Assembly: GCA_036263495.1 (NCBI GenBank) | Contig: DATAGU010000330.1 | Span: 16,637 to 80,636, forward strand | Source of the DNA: Polyangia bacterium | GTDB lineage: Bacteria; Myxococcota_A; Polyangia; Palsa-1104; SHYY01 | Direction: 5' to 3' | Length of the DNA: 64,000 bases | Shown here: in pieces, positions 7,676 to 43,798 of the stretch | Numbering within the stretch: the stretch's first letter is position 1 | Layout: each line of letters opens with the position of its first letter | Program-made: the position numbers and the translations under genes | Notes under the pieces: generated by a model | Databases searched by the model: none | What the model was told of the DNA's origin: nothing | The model's input: the letters and a program-made list of their open reading frames with translations, nothing else

Positions 7676-9163
7676 GTGAGGGCCATGTCGGAGCTGGAGC
7701 GTTCTGCTGCGGTCCCGGTGGCCGGTCGAGAGCCCACCCGGGCCCAGGCCGGGGCCCCGGCGCGCAAGATCCTGGTGGTGGATGACGAGCCCGAGGTGGC
7801 CAGCAGCCTGGCGGAGATCCTACGCGAGGAAGGCTACGCCGTGGACGTTGTGGGATCGGCCGAGGATGCGCTCGAGCGATTTCGTTTGGAGACCTATCAT
7901 CTCCTCCTCACCGACCTCCTCCTGCCGGGCAAGAGCGGCGTCGATCTGACCAAGGCGATCCACGATAGTTGTCCGGCCACGGCGATCGTGCTCGTCACGG
8001 GGCACGCCACGGTGAAGACCGCGGTGGCGGCGCTCAAGCGCGGCGCCGCCGACTATGTGCGCAAGCCGGTCAACCCGAAGCGGCTCAAGGAGCGAATCGC
8101 CACGCTGCTCGCCAACCGCCCGGATTACCTGCCCAACCGGCTCCTGTCGGTGGGGCGCTCGGGAGAGGTCCACTTCGAGGGGATGATCGCGCGCACCCGC
8201 GTGATGCACAACGTCTTCGAGAAGATCAAGCTGGCCGCCCAGGCCGACGCCACGGTGCTCATCACCGGGGAGTCGGGGACGGGCAAGGAGCTGGTGGCGC
8301 GGGCGGTCCATCGGCGCTCGCGGCGCATGAGCGGCCCGTTCGTGGCGGTGCACACCGGCGCCATCCCGCGCGACCTCATCTCCTCGGAGCTGTTCGGTCA
8401 CGAGAAGGGCTCCTTCACGGGGGCGGTGGAGCGCAAAGAAGGCAAGTTCGAGCTGTCCGAGGGCGGCACCATCTTCCTCGACGAGATCTCGACCATGGAC
8501 GAGCGCACGCAGATCAACCTCCTGCGGGTGCTCGAGAACTTCACCTACATGCGCATCGGCGGCAAGAAGGAGCGCGCGGCCGATGTGCGTGTGGTGGCCG
8601 CCACCAACCGCGACCTGTCCAAGATGGTGGAGGAGGGGACCTTTCGTGAGGACCTCTACTACCGGCTGAACATCCTCCAGATCAGCCTGCCGCCTTTGCG
8701 CGAGCGCAAAGAGGACATCGCGCTCCTGGCCAACGAGTTCGTGCGCCAGTTCTCCGAACAGTACCGCACCACGGTGGAGCTCGTCCCCGCGGAGACGCAG
8801 CGCCTGCTCGATGGGTATCACTGGCCGGGCAATGTGCGCGAATTGCGCAACGTGATCCAGCAGGCGGTGCTGCTCAGCGGCGGTCGGACCCTCGCCCCGG
8901 AGCTCCTGCCGCAGATGATCTACCAGGCCGGCCCCGTGGAGGAGGTCATCCGCATCCCGCTCGGGGTGTCGATGCGCGAGGCCGAGCGTGAGATCATTTT
9001 GCGCACGCTCGATTCCAAAGAGGGGAACAAGAAGACGACCGCCGAGGTGCTCGGGATCAGCCGCCGGTCGCTGTACAACAAACTTGCCGAGTATGGCGCG
9101 GACGCGGTACGGCGGCGTCCGAGCCCCCCGGCCTCCCGGTCTTCCCGGGACGCGGGGCGGTAA
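7676..9163 (+). CDS. sigma-54-dependent response regulator (NtrC family enhancer-binding protein)
   Basis: REC domain (ILVVDDEPEV...LLLTDLLLPG). AAA+ sigma-54 interaction domain (GESGTGKE, GSFTGA, ATNRDL). C-terminal Fis-type HTH (TAEVLGISRRSLYNKL). GTG at 7676, alternative ATG at 7685. Confidence 0.9.
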   Translation: MRAMSELERSAAVPVAGREPTRAQAGAPARKILVVDDEPEVASSLAEILREEGYAVDVVGSAEDALERFRLETYHLLLTDLLLPGKSGVDLTKAIHDSCPATAIVLVTGHATVKTAVAALKRGAADYVRKPVNPKRLKERIATLLANRPDYLPNRLLSVGRSGEVHFEGMIARTRVMHNVFEKIKLAAQADATVLITGESGTGKELVARAVHRRSRRMSGPFVAVHTGAIPRDLISSELFGHEKGSFTGAVERKEGKFELSEGGTIFLDEISTMDERTQINLLRVLENFTYMRIGGKKERAADVRVVAATNRDLSKMVEEGTFREDLYYRLNILQISLPPLRERKEDIALLANEFVRQFSEQYRTTVELVPAETQRLLDGYHWPGNVRELRNVIQQAVLLSGGRTLAPELLPQMIYQAGPVEEVIRIPLGVSMREAEREIILRTLDSKEGNKKTTAEVLGISRRSLYNKLAEYGADAVRRRPSPPASRSSRDAGR

Positions 9164-9214: not shown

Positions 9215-9931
9215 ATGGCCATGTCCAAGCCTCTCGATACACTGGCGCTCGCGCACCTGGCGGCCGCGCTGGCGCACGAGGTCCGTAACCCGCTCAATTC
9301 CATTGCTATCCATGCCGATCTCCTGGCCTCGCGTCTGCGCAAGGCGGGCCTGGCCGATCCCACGGCGATCGAACGTTCGATCGGATCACTTGGCCGCGAG
9401 GTCGAGCGTATCGATCGCATTCTTGGAACGTATCTAGATTGTGTGGGACCGCGTGAGTTCGAGCGTCAGGTGCTGGTGGTAGGGGATGTGGTGCGAGCGG
9501 CGCTCGAGCGAGCTCGCCCGCAGGCCAAGGAAAGGGAGATCCGTCTGCAATCGCGCATCACGCCCGCCGAGGCGCGCTGGACGTTCGACGAGGCGGCGCT
9601 CTGCCGGGTGCTCGATCTGCTCATCGAGAATGCGCTCGATGCTTCCTCGGCAGGGGGGACGGTGACGGTGCGGGCCAACGTCCGGGGAGGGCGCGGCACC
9701 CTCGATGTGACGGACGAGGGAGAGGGCATCGCGAGCGAGGCCCTGTCGCAGGTGTTCCTCCTCGGTTACAGCACGCGTGAGGGGCGTAACGGCGTGGGGC
9801 TCACGGTGGTCAAACAGATTATCCGTGGGCACGGAGGCTCCGTTACGGTACAGTCGGACGGTCCAGGAAAGGGCGCGACCTTCCGGATCGAGCTGCCGCT
9901 CCTGGCCCCTGACACATCCGGCGCCGGCTAA
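9215..9931 (+). CDS. soluble histidine kinase (HisKA + HATPase_c, no sensor domain)
   Basis: H-box LAHEVRNPLNSI, N-box IENALDA, G-boxes DEGEGI and GVGLTVVKQIIRGHGGSV. No TM segment. Confidence 0.85.
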   Translation: MAMSKPLDTLALAHLAAALAHEVRNPLNSIAIHADLLASRLRKAGLADPTAIERSIGSLGREVERIDRILGTYLDCVGPREFERQVLVVGDVVRAALERARPQAKEREIRLQSRITPAEARWTFDEAALCRVLDLLIENALDASSAGGTVTVRANVRGGRGTLDVTDEGEGIASEALSQVFLLGYSTREGRNGVGLTVVKQIIRGHGGSVTVQSDGPGKGATFRIELPLLAPDTSGAG

Positions 9932-10118
9932 GCCGGCGTACGTCTCCTATTCCGTAATTCGGGCACCAAGCCCGACGGCCGCAAGCCGTAGTACCGTCTA
10001 CTCTCCTGTCCCGAGCCCAGCGCTCGGATGCCGGTGACATGCACCGAAACGCGACGAATTGGCTATGATGGCCATCGTCGAGGCAAAGCGTCGGAGGGGG
10101 AAACATGAGGAGGAGCAC

Positions 10119-10268
10119 ATGATGGAAAAGACGATGAAGAGGATCGAAAAGAAGCTGGCCTTGAAGAAGGAATCGCTCCGGCGACTGACGGACAAGGAGC
10201 TGAGAGGAGTCGCCGGAGGGGCAGAGCCCACCCAAGACTGCACGATCTGGACCTGCATAGGTCCTTAA
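10119..10268 (+). CDS. double-glycine-leader peptide precursor (49 aa); predicted core AEPTQDCTIWTCIGP
   Basis: GAGGAGGAG Shine-Dalgarno at 10107-10115, then ATG ATG. The leader KKLALKKESLRRLTDKELRGVAGG matches the GG-type bacteriocin/natural-product leader pattern (K-rich, L-x-x-x-EL-x-x-V-x-GG). The core is 15 aa with C-x4-C. An imperfect hairpin at 10269-10296 follows the TAA. I judge the track ORF start at 10059 to be too long. Confidence 0.6.
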   Translation: MMEKTMKRIEKKLALKKESLRRLTDKELRGVAGGAEPTQDCTIWTCIGP

Positions 10269-10495
10269 GCTCACTGCCGGCGACCGGGCACTGAGCGCCC
10301 GCACGACCCACCCCAAGCCCATCATGTGTCCCCGATACCGGAAGCGCGGCGGCTTCCATCCCTGGGGCTTCCCTCACCGACCAGCACTCCAGAGAGCACT
10401 GTTCCGAGAAGCCGATCGAGCTTCACGATGTCGGTCCTGCGTCCGAACCGTCACGACAAGAGACATTCACCGGCAGAACATTCGCTGATATTCTG

Positions 10496-13312
10496 ATGGG
10501 TATGATTGGCCACCGCACGAGCTCAGACGTTCCGGTGGCAGCTCAGGATACAGATCCTCCGACCCTCCCGGATCCGCCTCGGGAGCAGCCGGTCACCATC
10601 ACCACGGAGGGCACCGATCCTGGTGTCAGCCGCGGCGGCGCCGCGCATGTACGTCCAGCCCCCCTTCCTCGTGAGGCCGATGCCGGGTCTACCCCTGGGG
10701 CGGCGAACGCCGTGGAGGGGCAACAGACGGCGCCCGTCACCATCCAGCCAGGCTCGGTGGTCGAGAAGGGGTTGGTGGTCGGAGCGGTTGTCGGTGGACG
10801 CTACGAGCTCCGCGCGCTCCTTGGCGAGGGCGGTATGGGGGCGGTCTTCCTTGCTCATGACGAGGTCCTGGGCGCGGACGTGGCGCTCAAGTTCGTGCTC
10901 CGTGATCTGACGCATCGCGAACAGGACTTGCGGCGCCTGCGAGCCGAGGTCCTGCTGGCGCAGAGGGCCTCGCACCCCAACGTCTGCCGCACCTATGACC
11001 TGGAAGAGCTCGATGGTCTGCTCTTCATCAAGATGGAGTATGTGGCCGGCGAGACGCTGGCGCGGCGGTTGGCGCGCGAAGCCAAAGTGTCGATCGATGA
11101 GCTCTTGCGCCTGGCGCGCGCGATCACGGCCGGTCTCGAGGCGGCGCATGCCCAGGGGGTGGTGCACTGCGACCTCAAACCGGAGAACATCCTCATCGAG
11201 CACGGCACCAAGCGGCCGGTGCTGATGGACTTTGGAATCGCCCGCGCGACGGCGCGGGGGACGACGAGCGGTGACTCGCTCTTCTGGGGGACGCCGGCCT
11301 ATATGGCGCCGGAGCAGCTCTCGGGCGGGAGCGTGGATGCGCGCACCGATCTCTATGCGCTCGGTTGTGTGCTGTATCAACTGGCCGTGGGCGAGGTGCC
11401 CTATCCGGAGGTGACGTCGTCCCGGTCGGCGCTGCATTATCTCGACGAGCCGATACCGGACCCGCGGGTCAGGCGGCCCGATCTGCCCTTCTGGCTGGCG
11501 GCGATCATCCGCAAGCTGCTGGTTAAGGATCCGCGCCAGCGATACCCCCATGCGGCGGCGTTGCGCGCCGCGTTGGCCGGGCCGCTGCGCTTGGAGGGGC
11601 GGCGCCTGTGGATACCGTTCGTCGCTGCGGTGGTCCTCGGCCTGGGGGCGATCGGCGTGTATCGATCGATGGGCCACAAGGTGGAGTGGCACGCGGATAG
11701 CCGTGTCCGTGTGCCGGCCTATGAGGAGCATGCCGGCTCTCCCAACATCTCGCCCGATGGCCGCTGGCTCGCCTACATCTCCGATCGCGAGGGGCCTTGG
11801 CGCCTGTACGTCGAGCCGATCTCGGGGGGGCCCGCGCGCGTGCTGCCGTGGGAGGGGCTCTTGTACCCGGTGCGCTGGGCTCATGACAGCCAGTCTCTCC
11901 TCGGCGTGGTGTACAAGGACGCCCGTGTGGTCCGTGTCCCGATGGTGGGGGGGGCGGTGGAGGAGGTGGCACGGCCGGCGGTCGACGTGGCCGACTGCAA
12001 GGGACGGCTGGTCCTGCGCACCCGGGGCGACGGTCAGTGCGCCACCTGTTACCGCTGGACGGCGCAGGAGGGGACCGGCGAGGGGGCCCGCTGGCGCGAG
12101 ATCCTCCGGGTGCCGGAAGCGGCCGTGATCAGGGCCATGCATTGCGATCCGAGTGGCCGGCAACTGACCTTCGCGGCGCTGCTGCAACCGCAAACGGGGG
12201 GCATGGTGCAGCAGGCCGACATCTATGTGCTCGACATCGACAGCGGCTCGCTCCGGCGGCTCACGTTCGACCATTACTATAATGATCACCCGAAGTTCGC
12301 GCCGGACGGCAAGACCATCATCTTCTCGTCGAACCGCAGCGGCGCTCACGAGCTGTGGGAGATCCCGGTCCAGGGGGGGGTGGCCATGCCCCTCACGAGC
12401 AGCGGCGGTCACACCAAGTCCCTGCCGTTCGACATCACGCCCGACGGTAAGCTCCTCATCTACAATCACGAGAGCGAGGCCGACCAGCTCTACGCGTACC
12501 GTCTCGACAGCCCGGATCGACGACGCATCAGCCATCCCTTGTCGCAGAAGCTGCGGCAGCCGTTCGTGACGCCGGATGGCCGCCAGCTCGTGATCCTCGT
12601 GACGCGCCAGGAGAAGAGCTATGCGGTCGTGCTGCCACTGACGGGGGGCGAGGAGCGGATCCTCACTGCGGCCGATGCGGTGGCCCTCGGCCTGGATGGC
12701 ACCGAGCTGATCTTTGCCCTGAACGAGGAGCAGGGCGCGCGGATCCTGGCCATGCCCCTCGGTGGGGGGGAGGCGCGGCGCATCACCCACGCCCCCGGGC
12801 CGGTGTCGAACCTGGCCGTAGACCGCGAAGGCTGGGTCCATCTGGCGATCCGGCAGGGAAGTGCCCGCGGCGGCTGGCGAGCCCCGCTGGCCGGTGGGGA
12901 GGCGGTGCGCGAATCGGCGCCGGGAGCCTTGCTGGTGCTGCCGGCCCCCGTCGGCGGCTGGCAGCTCGTCGGCTTCGAGCGGCCGGACAAAGGGTTTCGC
13001 TGGCGCTTGATGGGCCCGGGCCAGCCGCCGCCGCCGCCCCCCCTGTCGGAGGATCCGCGCTCCAAGGCCTCCGAGGCGGGTCTGCACGTCGCCTGGGCGA
13101 GCGATGGCAAGTCGTGGTTCAGCTGGAACGGCACCGAGATCTACCGCCGGTTCCTGGCGGGACGACCGGAGCAGCTCATCCTGCGCACCGAGCTCGTGAA
13201 CGGCATGACCGTGTCGAGCAACACCAACACGTTGTTCGTGGTGGAGGACGCCGGTCACACGGTGCGGCAGGTCATCGCCAACTTCGGCGACCGGCCGCGC
13301 CCGGTCAAGTGA
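10496..13312 (+). CDS. receptor-type Ser/Thr protein kinase: cytoplasmic kinase, one TM helix, TolB/PD40-like beta-propeller ectodomain
   Basis: Kinase motifs GEGGMGAVF, VALKFV, HCDLKPENIL, DFG and GTPAYMAPEQ. TM helix LWIPFVAAVVLGLGAIGVY. Repeated PD40-like SPDGRWLAYISDR, FAPDGKTIIFSSNRSG, ITPDGKLLIY and VTPDGRQLV. Confidence 0.9.
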   Translation: MGMIGHRTSSDVPVAAQDTDPPTLPDPPREQPVTITTEGTDPGVSRGGAAHVRPAPLPREADAGSTPGAANAVEGQQTAPVTIQPGSVVEKGLVVGAVVGGRYELRALLGEGGMGAVFLAHDEVLGADVALKFVLRDLTHREQDLRRLRAEVLLAQRASHPNVCRTYDLEELDGLLFIKMEYVAGETLARRLAREAKVSIDELLRLARAITAGLEAAHAQGVVHCDLKPENILIEHGTKRPVLMDFGIARATARGTTSGDSLFWGTPAYMAPEQLSGGSVDARTDLYALGCVLYQLAVGEVPYPEVTSSRSALHYLDEPIPDPRVRRPDLPFWLAAIIRKLLVKDPRQRYPHAAALRAALAGPLRLEGRRLWIPFVAAVVLGLGAIGVYRSMGHKVEWHADSRVRVPAYEEHAGSPNISPDGRWLAYISDREGPWRLYVEPISGGPARVLPWEGLLYPVRWAHDSQSLLGVVYKDARVVRVPMVGGAVEEVARPAVDVADCKGRLVLRTRGDGQCATCYRWTAQEGTGEGARWREILRVPEAAVIRAMHCDPSGRQLTFAALLQPQTGGMVQQADIYVLDIDSGSLRRLTFDHYYNDHPKFAPDGKTIIFSSNRSGAHELWEIPVQGGVAMPLTSSGGHTKSLPFDITPDGKLLIYNHESEADQLYAYRLDSPDRRRISHPLSQKLRQPFVTPDGRQLVILVTRQEKSYAVVLPLTGGEERILTAADAVALGLDGTELIFALNEEQGARILAMPLGGGEARRITHAPGPVSNLAVDREGWVHLAIRQGSARGGWRAPLAGGEAVRESAPGALLVLPAPVGGWQLVGFERPDKGFRWRLMGPGQPPPPPPLSEDPRSKASEAGLHVAWASDGKSWFSWNGTEIYRRFLAGRPEQLILRTELVNGMTVSSNTNTLFVVEDAGHTVRQVIANFGDRPRPVK

Positions 13313-42221: not shown

Positions 42222-43652
42222 TCAGGCGGCGATGACGGGCAGGCGGGCCCGTCCATGGGGCGCGCGGGCGCGCGCTATCACCTCGGTCACGGTGGCGCCG
42301 AGGTCGTAGTCGGCGAAGGAATCGATGCGCGCCCGCACGAGATCACCGGGGCGCAGCGTCTCCACGCCCTCGCCGAGGGCCAGGAAGACCTTGCCATCGA
42401 CGTCGGGGGCCTGACCCGCGTGGCGGCCCTCGAAGAGGTACTCGTTCTCCTCGGAGGCGCCATCGACGAGCACCTCCAGCGTGCTGCCCGCGTCGAGCAG
42501 GGCCTTCATCTTGCGCTTGGAGATGCGGCGCTGCTGGCGCATGAGCTCGCGGCGGCGCGCCTCGGCCACCTTCGCCGGCACCTCGAGCTCATCGAGCGTC
42601 GCGGCGTGGGTGCCCTCCTCCTTGGAGTAGGTGAAGACGCCGACGCGGTCGAACTCGCACTCGGTGACGAAGTCGAGGAGCCGCTGGAACCGCTCGTCGG
42701 TCTCGCCGGGGTGGCCGACGATGAAGGTGGTGCGCAGGGTGACGCCCGGGATGCGGGCGCGCACGCGCTCGACCAGGCGCCGCGCGGTCTTGCCCACGTG
42801 GCCGCGGCGCATGATCTTGAGCATGTCGTCGTCGATGTGCTGGAGCGGCACGTCGATGTACTTGACGATGTGCTCCTCCTCCGCGATGACGTCGAGGAGC
42901 TCGTCGGTGGTGGCGGTGGGGTAGGCGTAATGGAGGCGCAGCCAGCGCGGGCCGCCGGTCTCGCGGGCCACCCGCCCGAGGCGGCGCAGGAGGTGCGCGA
43001 GATCGCTGGGCGAGGCCCCGGGCACGGAGGGCAAGTCGACGCCGTAGTTGGTCAGGTCCTGCGCCACGAGGTTCACCTCGACGGCACCGCTCTCGCCGAG
43101 CGAGCGCACCTCGCGCTCCACGGACTCGGGCGAGCGCGAGCGCTGGGCGCCGCGGAGCTTGGGGATGATGCAGAAGCTGCAGGGACGGTCGCAGCCTTCG
43201 GCGATCTTGACGTAGGCGGTGTGACGGGCGGTCGAGGCGCGGCGGGGCGTGGCGTCGTCGTAGAGCCAGCGCGGCTCGGTGATGCTCACGCCGCTCGCTT
43301 CGCCGCGCACCGCGGCGCCGATGCGCGCCATGTCGGCCGAGCCGAGGAAGACGTCCACCTCGGGCAGCTCGCGTTCGAGGTCGCCGGCATAGCGCTGCGA
43401 GAGGCAGCCGGTCACGACCAGGCGCTGGCAGGAGCCGCCCGTCTTGTAGCGGCCCATCTCGAGGATGGTGTCGACCGACTCCTCCTTGGCCTCGCCGATG
43501 AAACCGCAGGTGTTGACGACGATGACCTCGGCGTCCTCGGGCTCGGCGACGATGCGCAGCCCTTCTTCGGCACAGAGGCCGAGCATCACCTCGGTGTCGA
43601 CGCGGTTCTTGGGGCAGCCGAGCGAGACGAAGTAGACCGACTTGGTGGGCAT
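42222..43652 (-). CDS. rimO: ribosomal protein S12 methylthiotransferase
   Basis: I trimmed to the ATG at 43652 (MPTKSVYFVSLGCPKNRVD). Radical-SAM CDRPCSFC. C-terminal TRAM domain. Confidence 0.9.
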   Translation of the reverse strand: MPTKSVYFVSLGCPKNRVDTEVMLGLCAEEGLRIVAEPEDAEVIVVNTCGFIGEAKEESVDTILEMGRYKTGGSCQRLVVTGCLSQRYAGDLERELPEVDVFLGSADMARIGAAVRGEASGVSITEPRWLYDDATPRRASTARHTAYVKIAEGCDRPCSFCIIPKLRGAQRSRSPESVEREVRSLGESGAVEVNLVAQDLTNYGVDLPSVPGASPSDLAHLLRRLGRVARETGGPRWLRLHYAYPTATTDELLDVIAEEEHIVKYIDVPLQHIDDDMLKIMRRGHVGKTARRLVERVRARIPGVTLRTTFIVGHPGETDERFQRLLDFVTECEFDRVGVFTYSKEEGTHAATLDELEVPAKVAEARRRELMRQQRRISKRKMKALLDAGSTLEVLVDGASEENEYLFEGRHAGQAPDVDGKVFLALGEGVETLRPGDLVRARIDSFADYDLGATVTEVIARARAPHGRARLPVIAA

Positions 43653-43798
43653 GACTGTGGGTTCCGGCGTTCGGGTGGGTGTGGGCGGAGGATGGAAGGC
43701 CAGCGGAGACAAGTCAAGCCGCGCGCCGGCCGGGATCGCCGCCCGCACCGGTTAACACCACCCCCTCCATCCTTATCTTCCCCGGCCGGGAGGTGGAG

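Follow-up and report, generated by a model that had tools for sequence, protein, structure and literature searches.

A 64-kb stretch of contig C330 (the window) in the 8.75-Mb, 387-contig, 70%-GC assembly of a Polyangia bacterium (genome G000) contains a gene for a 49-amino-acid peptide at positions 10119–10268 on the forward strand. Here we report that this open reading frame (ORF) is, as judged from its leader, a lanthipeptide-type, double-glycine-leader precursor of a peptide that is made on the ribosome and modified after translation (RiPP), and that it adjoins a gene for a receptor-type Ser/Thr kinase (10496–13312, forward strand), a pairing that recurs in the genome, in related genomes and on metagenome contigs. 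An initial annotation of the sequence had described the peptide gene as stand-alone, a description that the conserved kinase neighbour overturns. On balance, we lean towards a reading in which the precursor is matured in trans, exported with cleavage after Gly-Gly and tied to the receptor kinase, most likely as its ligand. The significance lies in this genomic context; viewed on its own, the peptide is a typical representative of a curated family. The literature that we searched, with incomplete coverage, held no description of cassettes that combine a peptide with a receptor Ser/Thr kinase.

The gene opens with ATG ATG at 10119 behind a Shine–Dalgarno sequence (GAGGAGGAG, 10107–10115) and closes with a TAA stop codon at 10266–10268, as the initial annotation had read it. 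Its product joins a leader of 34 amino acids, MMEKTMKRIEKKLALKKESLRRLTDKELRGVAGG (10119–10220), to a core, AEPTQDCTIWTCIGP (10221–10268, with the stop codon), at the Gly-Gly cleavage point. The core has, again as first read, two Cys residues in C-x4-C spacing and three Thr residues, and contains T-Q-D-C and T-I-W-T-C. The gene region had been taken to begin at 10059, and a longer version with a TTG start there was ruled out because the region upstream carries indels in the orthologues, which keep only the ATGATG start and its Shine–Dalgarno sequence.

Conservation in relatives, which the initial annotation had named as a check on the ORF, is pronounced. A protein search returned 5 close relatives with 77–84% identity, 4 of the 5 relatives keep the core as EPTQDCT(I/L)WTC (variants are CMVW in P0002 and PTADC in P0005), and 1076 database relatives score E ≤ 0.001. 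Comparison of the window peptide with three metagenome orthologues gave a synonymous divergence (dS) of 0.7–1.2 and a ratio of non-synonymous to synonymous divergence (dN/dS) of 0.08–0.16, which indicates strong purifying selection. The Shine–Dalgarno sequence and ATGATG are invariant in a DNA alignment of the window with four metagenome orthologue loci, and the region upstream (10040–10118, forward strand), probably a 5′ untranslated region or promoter, retains near-invariant blocks despite indels and includes a TATGAT −10-like hexamer. This pattern marks the peptide ORF as a genuine gene, far beyond chance.

The base composition of the ORF is lower in GC (0.56) than that of the genome (0.70), with a local dip to 0.53–0.56 between flanks of 0.65–0.72, and its GC content at third codon positions (GC3) is 0.76, compared with about 0.90 in the kinase genes. 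The atypical codon usage noted initially is therefore present, but it is mild and family-wide (mean GC3 across the peptide paralogues, 0.80). Similarly, the imperfect hairpin that was noted 3′ of the stop codon exists (10269–10296, forward strand; minimum free energy of −15.2 kcal/mol), but its folding does not stand out from that of shuffled controls (z = −0.9, non-significant); it is partially conserved in the orthologues, in which clear compensatory changes were not seen. Scans of the peptide locus for consensus sigma-70 promoters and for terminators gave no match, and an Rfam scan of 9800–10600 returned nothing credible (the sole match, isrK, scored 16.6 bits against a gathering score of 50).

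The leader matches the NCBIfam model NF038153 (lant_leader_L1a, ‘class I lanthipeptide’) at 30.2 bits (cut-off, 22), and PF28317 (Lant_leader_dom) is recorded for orthologues of the window peptide. It reads L-A-L-K-K-ESLRR-L, that is, LxLxKx5L, and its C-terminal end is ELRGVAGG; an LxLxKx5L...GG motif was reported for those class I LanA precursors of Bacteroidetes whose gene clusters include C39 peptidases (Walker et al. 2020, PMC7268733). The profile match and this motif place the leader in the NF038153/PF28317 family of class I lanthipeptide leaders, and the double-glycine-leader RiPP precursor that had been proposed is upheld. The model to which the initial annotation pointed, TIGR04149 (GG_sam_targ_CFB, for RiPPs modified by radical S-adenosylmethionine (SAM) enzymes), fared otherwise: it scored 15.4 bits, under its cut-off of 25, and no radical-SAM maturase lies nearby. 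DUF5836 also scored under its cut-off on the window peptide. The core is compatible with lanthionine formation, as its three Thr and two Cys residues are suitably placed, and its calculated mass is 1633.71 Da in linear form and 1597.69 Da after two dehydrations. Class I assignment also looks to a LanB and a LanC in the same cluster, and the contig of the window gene carries neither.

Elsewhere, the same leader does occur beside class I enzymes. A scan of the named genomes with KKL[SA]L[ST]KET yielded 21 confirmed loci, at 6 of which LanB and/or LanC adjoins the peptide and at none of which a kinase does; the loci come from Acidobacteriota, Actinomycetota, Bacteroidia and Wenzhouxiangella. In Acidobacteriota, Actinomycetota and Wenzhouxiangella, the leader found beside LanB/LanC reads KKLSLSKETLR...GG. 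In the window’s own order, the peptide family is also present in canonical LanC–LanB–peptide clusters (L066 and L068), and a strong LanB match (E < 1e-100) was found in all 6 peptide-bearing genomes of the order, compared with 4 of the 36 genomes that lack the peptide.

The paralogous double-glycine-leader ORFs for which a search had been suggested are numerous (about 34 in the genome). A search with the NF038153 profile gave 16 loci that pass the cut-off, a number that rises to 34 when matches with E ≤ 10 are included, and a custom leader hidden Markov model built from these loci set 32 unambiguous members (E ≤ 3e-5) apart from the background (E > 1), with 2 or 3 further members truncated; as the assembly is fragmented, some ‘orphan’ peptides lie at contig ends. 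The paralogue cores are rich in Thr (19%) and Cys (12%), and one Thr is invariant when they are aligned. The motif P-T-x-x-C is present in 18 of 34 cores (1.1 in shuffles) and T-x-x-C in 26 of 34 (11.6 in shuffles). Seven cores have a single Cys and ten have three or five, and disulfides alone therefore cannot explain the cores. LanB or LanC adjoins only 3 of the 34 peptides (on C3, C119 and C253).

Kinase genes are the recurring neighbours. Among the 34 peptides, 22 have a kinase gene within 1 kb and 19 within 500 bp, whereas random placement relative to the 245 kinase-domain frames of the genome predicts 4.4 ± 1.9 within 1 kb (maximum of 11 in 2000 draws). All of the peptide-adjacent kinases fall into three receptor-type families, defined by homology of their C-terminal halves, that together account for about 34 of the 245 kinases: 13 are PD40-type (around 880–1010 amino acids), about 18 are WD40-type (around 1130–1160 amino acids) and 3 are TPR-type. 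Outside these families, no double-glycine-leader peptide neighbours any of the remaining 211 or so kinases. Each of the 30 family kinases checked has exactly one hydrophobic segment, 10–35 residues past the kinase domain, although this segment is weak (hydropathy of less than 1.8) in 7 kinases. From this topology, the repeat domain is expected to lie outside the cytoplasm. The arrangement differs between families, with the peptide usually upstream and on the same strand in the PD40 family, as in the window, and downstream in the WD40 family. The PD40-type kinases are non-RD (HCDLKPxN) in 12 of 13 cases, with their other catalytic motifs intact; the WD40-type kinases are HRD, and DWG replaces DFG in most of them.

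In total, the genome contains about 19 peptide–kinase cassettes, in which peptide and kinase have diverged together. The closest paralogue of the window kinase, on C71 (65% sensor identity), is preceded by two peptides, the cores of which (EPTQYCTFPCF) are also the closest paralogues of the window core. Mantel tests of peptide identity against sensor identity gave r = 0.71–0.73 (p ~0.001) for 8 PD40 cassettes and r = 0.42 (p = 0.011) for 9 WD40 cassettes. Beyond this genome, the pairing recurs at 4 of 9 loci from other members of the order and on three metagenome contigs (L092–L094). On this genomic evidence, the peptide gene is linked to a receptor-type kinase significantly, specifically and heritably.

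Several cassettes stand in tandem arrays: three kinases are interleaved with two peptides at C181:2343–14416, and two cassettes each are found at C352:6071–13096 and C75:13373–19998. At L069 (G030:C4:204000–217000), in another family of the same order, a kinase with a frame of 1204 amino acids is followed by a double-glycine-leader peptide and, around 1.3 kb further, by a convergent LanB that is apparently split or frameshifted, such that kinase, peptide and LanB share a locus. At C120:246–5972 (reverse strand) of G000, a WD40-type kinase is followed by a RiPP C-methyltransferase of the rSAM_ocin_1 type (TIGR03975, 607 bits) and then by a peptide that has the same leader and a Cys-free core, GDENIATSINK. 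The kinase type thus pairs with double-glycine-leader RiPP precursors of different chemistry, which argues against the kinase as the modifying enzyme. A truncated copy of the C120 cassette, with the core SALGIPISILT, is present at C175:15480–16986 (reverse strand), and radical-SAM genes adjoin two PD40-type kinases that have no detectable double-glycine-leader peptide (C346:46387–51582 and C280:26986–31278).

The partner kinase in the window is separated from the peptide gene by 228 bp and was assigned with the Pfam models Pkinase and PD40. It comprises a kinase domain (amino acids 103–355; 10802–11560), a single transmembrane helix (amino acids 371–389; 11606–11662), which is the one hydrophobic segment after the kinase domain, and a predicted tandem β-propeller (PD40) ectodomain (11666–13309). 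The catalytic motifs are complete and of the non-RD type (HCD). An AlphaFold2 model of ectodomain residues 391–938 is all-β (predicted local distance difference test score of 87.6; predicted template-modelling score of 0.80), and its best matches in a fold search were tricorn protease propellers, other double propellers, LRP6 ectodomains and TolB, with TM-scores of 0.3–0.4 that denote a generic tandem propeller only. Neither the model nor the fold search revealed a catalytic domain or an informative ligand site, and relatives of the window kinase, which we sought in the named genomes, were not found there. Just upstream of the kinase start, at 10440–10495, all orthologue contigs share a conserved block, GACAAGAGACATTCACCGGCAGA.CGTTC.CTGATAT, with a TTCACC-N17-TATTCT/TATCCT layout, a possible separate promoter of the kinase gene.

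Upstream of the peptide gene lie a sigma-54 activator (7676–9163) and a soluble histidine kinase with HisKA and HATPase domains (9215–9931), both on the forward strand and identified with Pfam. Three short metagenome contigs that carry orthologues keep the order activator, HisKA/HATPase kinase, peptide and next gene, and the synteny of peptide and receptor kinase is kept in the orthologue contigs. As the histidine kinase and activator are absent at the closest paralogous cassette (C71), the conserved unit is the peptide with the receptor kinase, and the histidine kinase and activator are syntenic neighbours outside the recurring cassette. A direct tie of the peptide to the upstream activator is unsupported, as no sigma-54 −24/−12 element is conserved among the orthologues of the peptide locus.

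Genome-wide profile searches located enzymes that could mature and export the peptide, in agreement with the initial proposal that these functions are encoded elsewhere. They comprise two LanB (C32:17191–21099 and C119:148–3480), one LanM and five stand-alone LanC (C3, C68, C253 and two copies on C267). Two genes encode C39-peptidase ATP-binding cassette (ABC) proteins, one a canonical peptidase-containing ABC transporter (PCAT) at C251:13181–15523 and the other on C176; neither adjoins the window peptide gene. The two ORFs that precede the C251 PCAT gene appear HlyD-like, as judged by eye without a domain scan. The window’s part of contig C330 contains no C39, LanB or LanC genes according to the profile searches, and to this extent the initial statement that it lacks C39-peptidase, radical-SAM and lanthionine genes holds; it does, however, contain a radical-SAM gene (42225–43655, reverse strand). 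This gene, the only one of its kind in the window, encodes RimO, the 30S protein S12 methylthiotransferase (TIGR01125, 471 bits), a housekeeping function that is unrelated to the peptide 32 kb away.

Two of the enzyme-adjacent peptide loci in G000 have further genes of interest. At C119:148–4539, LanB (1110 amino acids) is followed by a convergent double-glycine-leader peptide gene and a gene for a secreted protein of 270 amino acids. Read without a domain scan, this protein shows a signal-like stretch at its N terminus and contains the motif QxxxxFCGPTS. We take this motif to resemble that of phytochelatin-synthase-like Cys peptidases, in which case the protein could be a leader peptidase. 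The locus at C3:23337–29078 combines LanC with a peptide and has no LanB; its flanking genes, by eye and without a domain scan, look FAD-linked oxidase-like, aldehyde dehydrogenase-like and methyltransferase-like.

The sequence of events that we infer runs from modification in trans through ring formation and PCAT export to contact between ligand and receptor. The 34-residue leader, with its LxLxKx5L...GG motif, would recruit a dehydratase (LanB) and a cyclase (LanC) from loci elsewhere in the genome; Thr residues would be dehydrated and thioether rings closed onto the two Cys residues, with Thr4–Cys7 and Thr8 (or Thr11)–Cys12 as the probable pattern. The PCAT, together with the products of the two neighbouring genes read as HlyD-like partners, would then cut after Gly-Gly and export the 15-mer. 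With the single-pass receptor kinase gene downstream of it, the peptide gene forms one inherited unit; the kinase domain would lie inside the cell and the tandem PD40 β-propeller outside. The most likely relation between the two seems to be that the kinase uses its propeller ectodomain to sense the exported peptide of its cassette, in autoinduction or as a private signal.

A number of observations weigh against this reading. No LanB, LanC or PCAT is encoded within the 64 kb, and modification in trans is thus a step that we infer. The two genes may each have a promoter, to judge from the 228 bp that part them and from the conserved block ahead of the kinase start. About 15 family kinases have no detectable peptide neighbour, and a relaxed leader-pattern search beside them found nothing convincing. 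The peptide family is rare in the phylum: of 400 genomes sampled, only 1 other gave a match. Because the paralogues arose by duplication, many cassettes being tandem duplicates, they are not independent, so that the shuffle and placement tests overstate the significance of adjacency and motifs. Finally, co-divergence is a measure of linkage, not of physical binding.

The foremost competing explanation, which we regard as doubtful although it has to be taken seriously, is that the precursors are a dispersed set of antimicrobial lanthipeptides and that the kinase, which senses some other cue, regulates their production or immunity to them, with no contact between peptide and kinase. The leader and the LanB/LanC evidence fit this explanation equally well, the hypervariable Cys- and Thr-rich cores recall lantibiotic arsenals and prochlorosins, independent transcription would fit the separate conserved blocks that precede the kinase start, and linkage alone can yield co-divergence. 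However, a dedicated kinase for each peptide, kept through old duplications (sensor identities of 40–65%), would be a costly means of regulation, and neither immunity nor transporter genes recur in the cassettes. The C120 cassette, in which the same kinase type accompanies a different chemistry, also suggests a link to the exported peptide itself.

The initial annotation had offered, as an option, that the peptide is used unmodified. A PCAT-exported double-glycine-leader peptide of the class II bacteriocin or pheromone type, with disulfides at most and without lanthionine, would agree with the exactly two Cys residues of the window core in C-x4-C spacing, with the PCAT exporters of the genome and with the lack of a modifying enzyme nearby. 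It agrees less well with paralogues that have the same leader and one, three or five Cys residues, with the conserved P-T-x-x-C (18 of 34 cores), with a leader that passes the class I lanthipeptide model, with the co-occurrence of LanB in the order and with the LanB- or LanC-adjacent members in other phyla; we consider an unmodified product improbable.

A biosynthetic role of the kinase is unlikely. It would amount to lanthipeptide synthesis in the manner of class III, IV or V but divided between separate proteins, in which the kinase phosphorylates the Thr of P-T-x-x-C, elimination follows and a stand-alone LanC closes the ring. The surplus of stand-alone LanC (five) over LanB (only two), the C3 locus with its LanC and peptide but no LanB, and the invariant Thr of the aligned cores could all be accommodated in this way, and the kinase domain aligns with those of LanL and LanKC (NF038150, 110 bits). 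These scores, however, are far below the respective cut-offs (650 for NF038150; 575 for NF038151, which scored 55 bits) and come from the kinase domain only, as expected of generic similarity. The window kinase has no lyase or LanC domain, a transmembrane helix stands between the kinase domain and an ectodomain of 550 residues in each of the 30 members checked, the same kinase type accompanies a radical-SAM-modified, Cys-free peptide, and the peptide family co-occurs with LanB. Last, the shortness and below-average GC content of the ORF might speak for a frame that is open by chance or for a regulatory region that encodes no protein, an idea that is effectively refuted by the conservation pattern (the dN/dS values, the conserved Shine–Dalgarno sequence and start, the 34 paralogues and the 1076 relatives).

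If the exported-ligand reading is correct, a more specific possibility, which we put forward tentatively, is that the cassettes are private ligand–receptor pairs, in which each exported double-glycine-leader peptide, with thioether rings or another modification, is the specific ligand of the Hanks-type kinase in its cassette, bound by the tandem β-propeller ectodomain, and the genome encodes about 19 parallel channels. Bacterial receptor Ser/Thr kinases have very few known ligands, and most of the hundreds in myxobacteria have none; about 19 kinases that each stand beside a candidate ligand gene make the question of their ligands directly testable. Private pairs would give a soil myxobacterium about 19 peptide channels that rely on eukaryote-like kinases and carry signals of quorum, kinship or development, and would represent a bacterial counterpart of the peptide-hormone and receptor-like-kinase signalling of plants. 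They would also extend the signalling role of class I lanthipeptides past the autoinduction of lantibiotics such as nisin. More generally, the locus would add class I enzymes to the trans-maturation of many dispersed precursors, which is known from the prochlorosins of class II, and would suggest that lanthipeptides can serve as signals, rather than antibiotics, in diderm soil bacteria.

Four known systems invite comparison. The window peptide resembles the class I LanA precursors of the Bacteroidetes type (pinensin family; PMC7268733) in its leader motif, its Gly-Gly site and its Thr- and Cys-rich core, and its genome likewise has C39 exporters as well as LanB and LanC, which co-occur with the peptide family. 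It differs in that the precursor gene lies outside a LanB/LanC cluster and has a receptor Ser/Thr kinase gene as its conserved neighbour, and in that the cores of its family have a lineage-specific P-T-x-x-C. With the prochlorosins (ProcA/ProcM, class II), it shares dozens of scattered precursors with a conserved leader and hypervariable cores that a few enzymes encoded elsewhere would mature in trans; unlike theirs, the window leader is not of the Nif11 type, the enzymes would be LanB and LanC rather than LanM, and prochlorosin genes are not known to be paired with kinases.

On the receptor side, the nearest counterpart is PknD of Mycobacterium tuberculosis, which we take to carry a single NHL propeller. 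PknD is a receptor Ser/Thr kinase with an extracellular β-propeller (PMC1847690) and shares with the window kinase a cytoplasmic Hanks-type kinase domain, one transmembrane helix and an extracytoplasmic β-propeller sensor, but no known ligand gene stands beside it, whereas here the propeller is a tandem of PD40 (or WD40) type and a candidate ligand gene is adjacent. As signalling circuits, the cassettes are reminiscent of the established pairs nisin/NisK–NisR, subtilin/SpaK–SpaR and ComC/ComD–ComE (cited in PMC11876861), in which an exported peptide processed from a leader or double-glycine precursor is likewise encoded beside a membrane sensor kinase for its detection. In the cassettes described here, by contrast, the kinase is of the Hanks type with a β-propeller ectodomain instead of a polytopic histidine kinase, no cognate response regulator is part of the cassette, the host is a diderm, and there are about 19 parallel cassettes instead of one.

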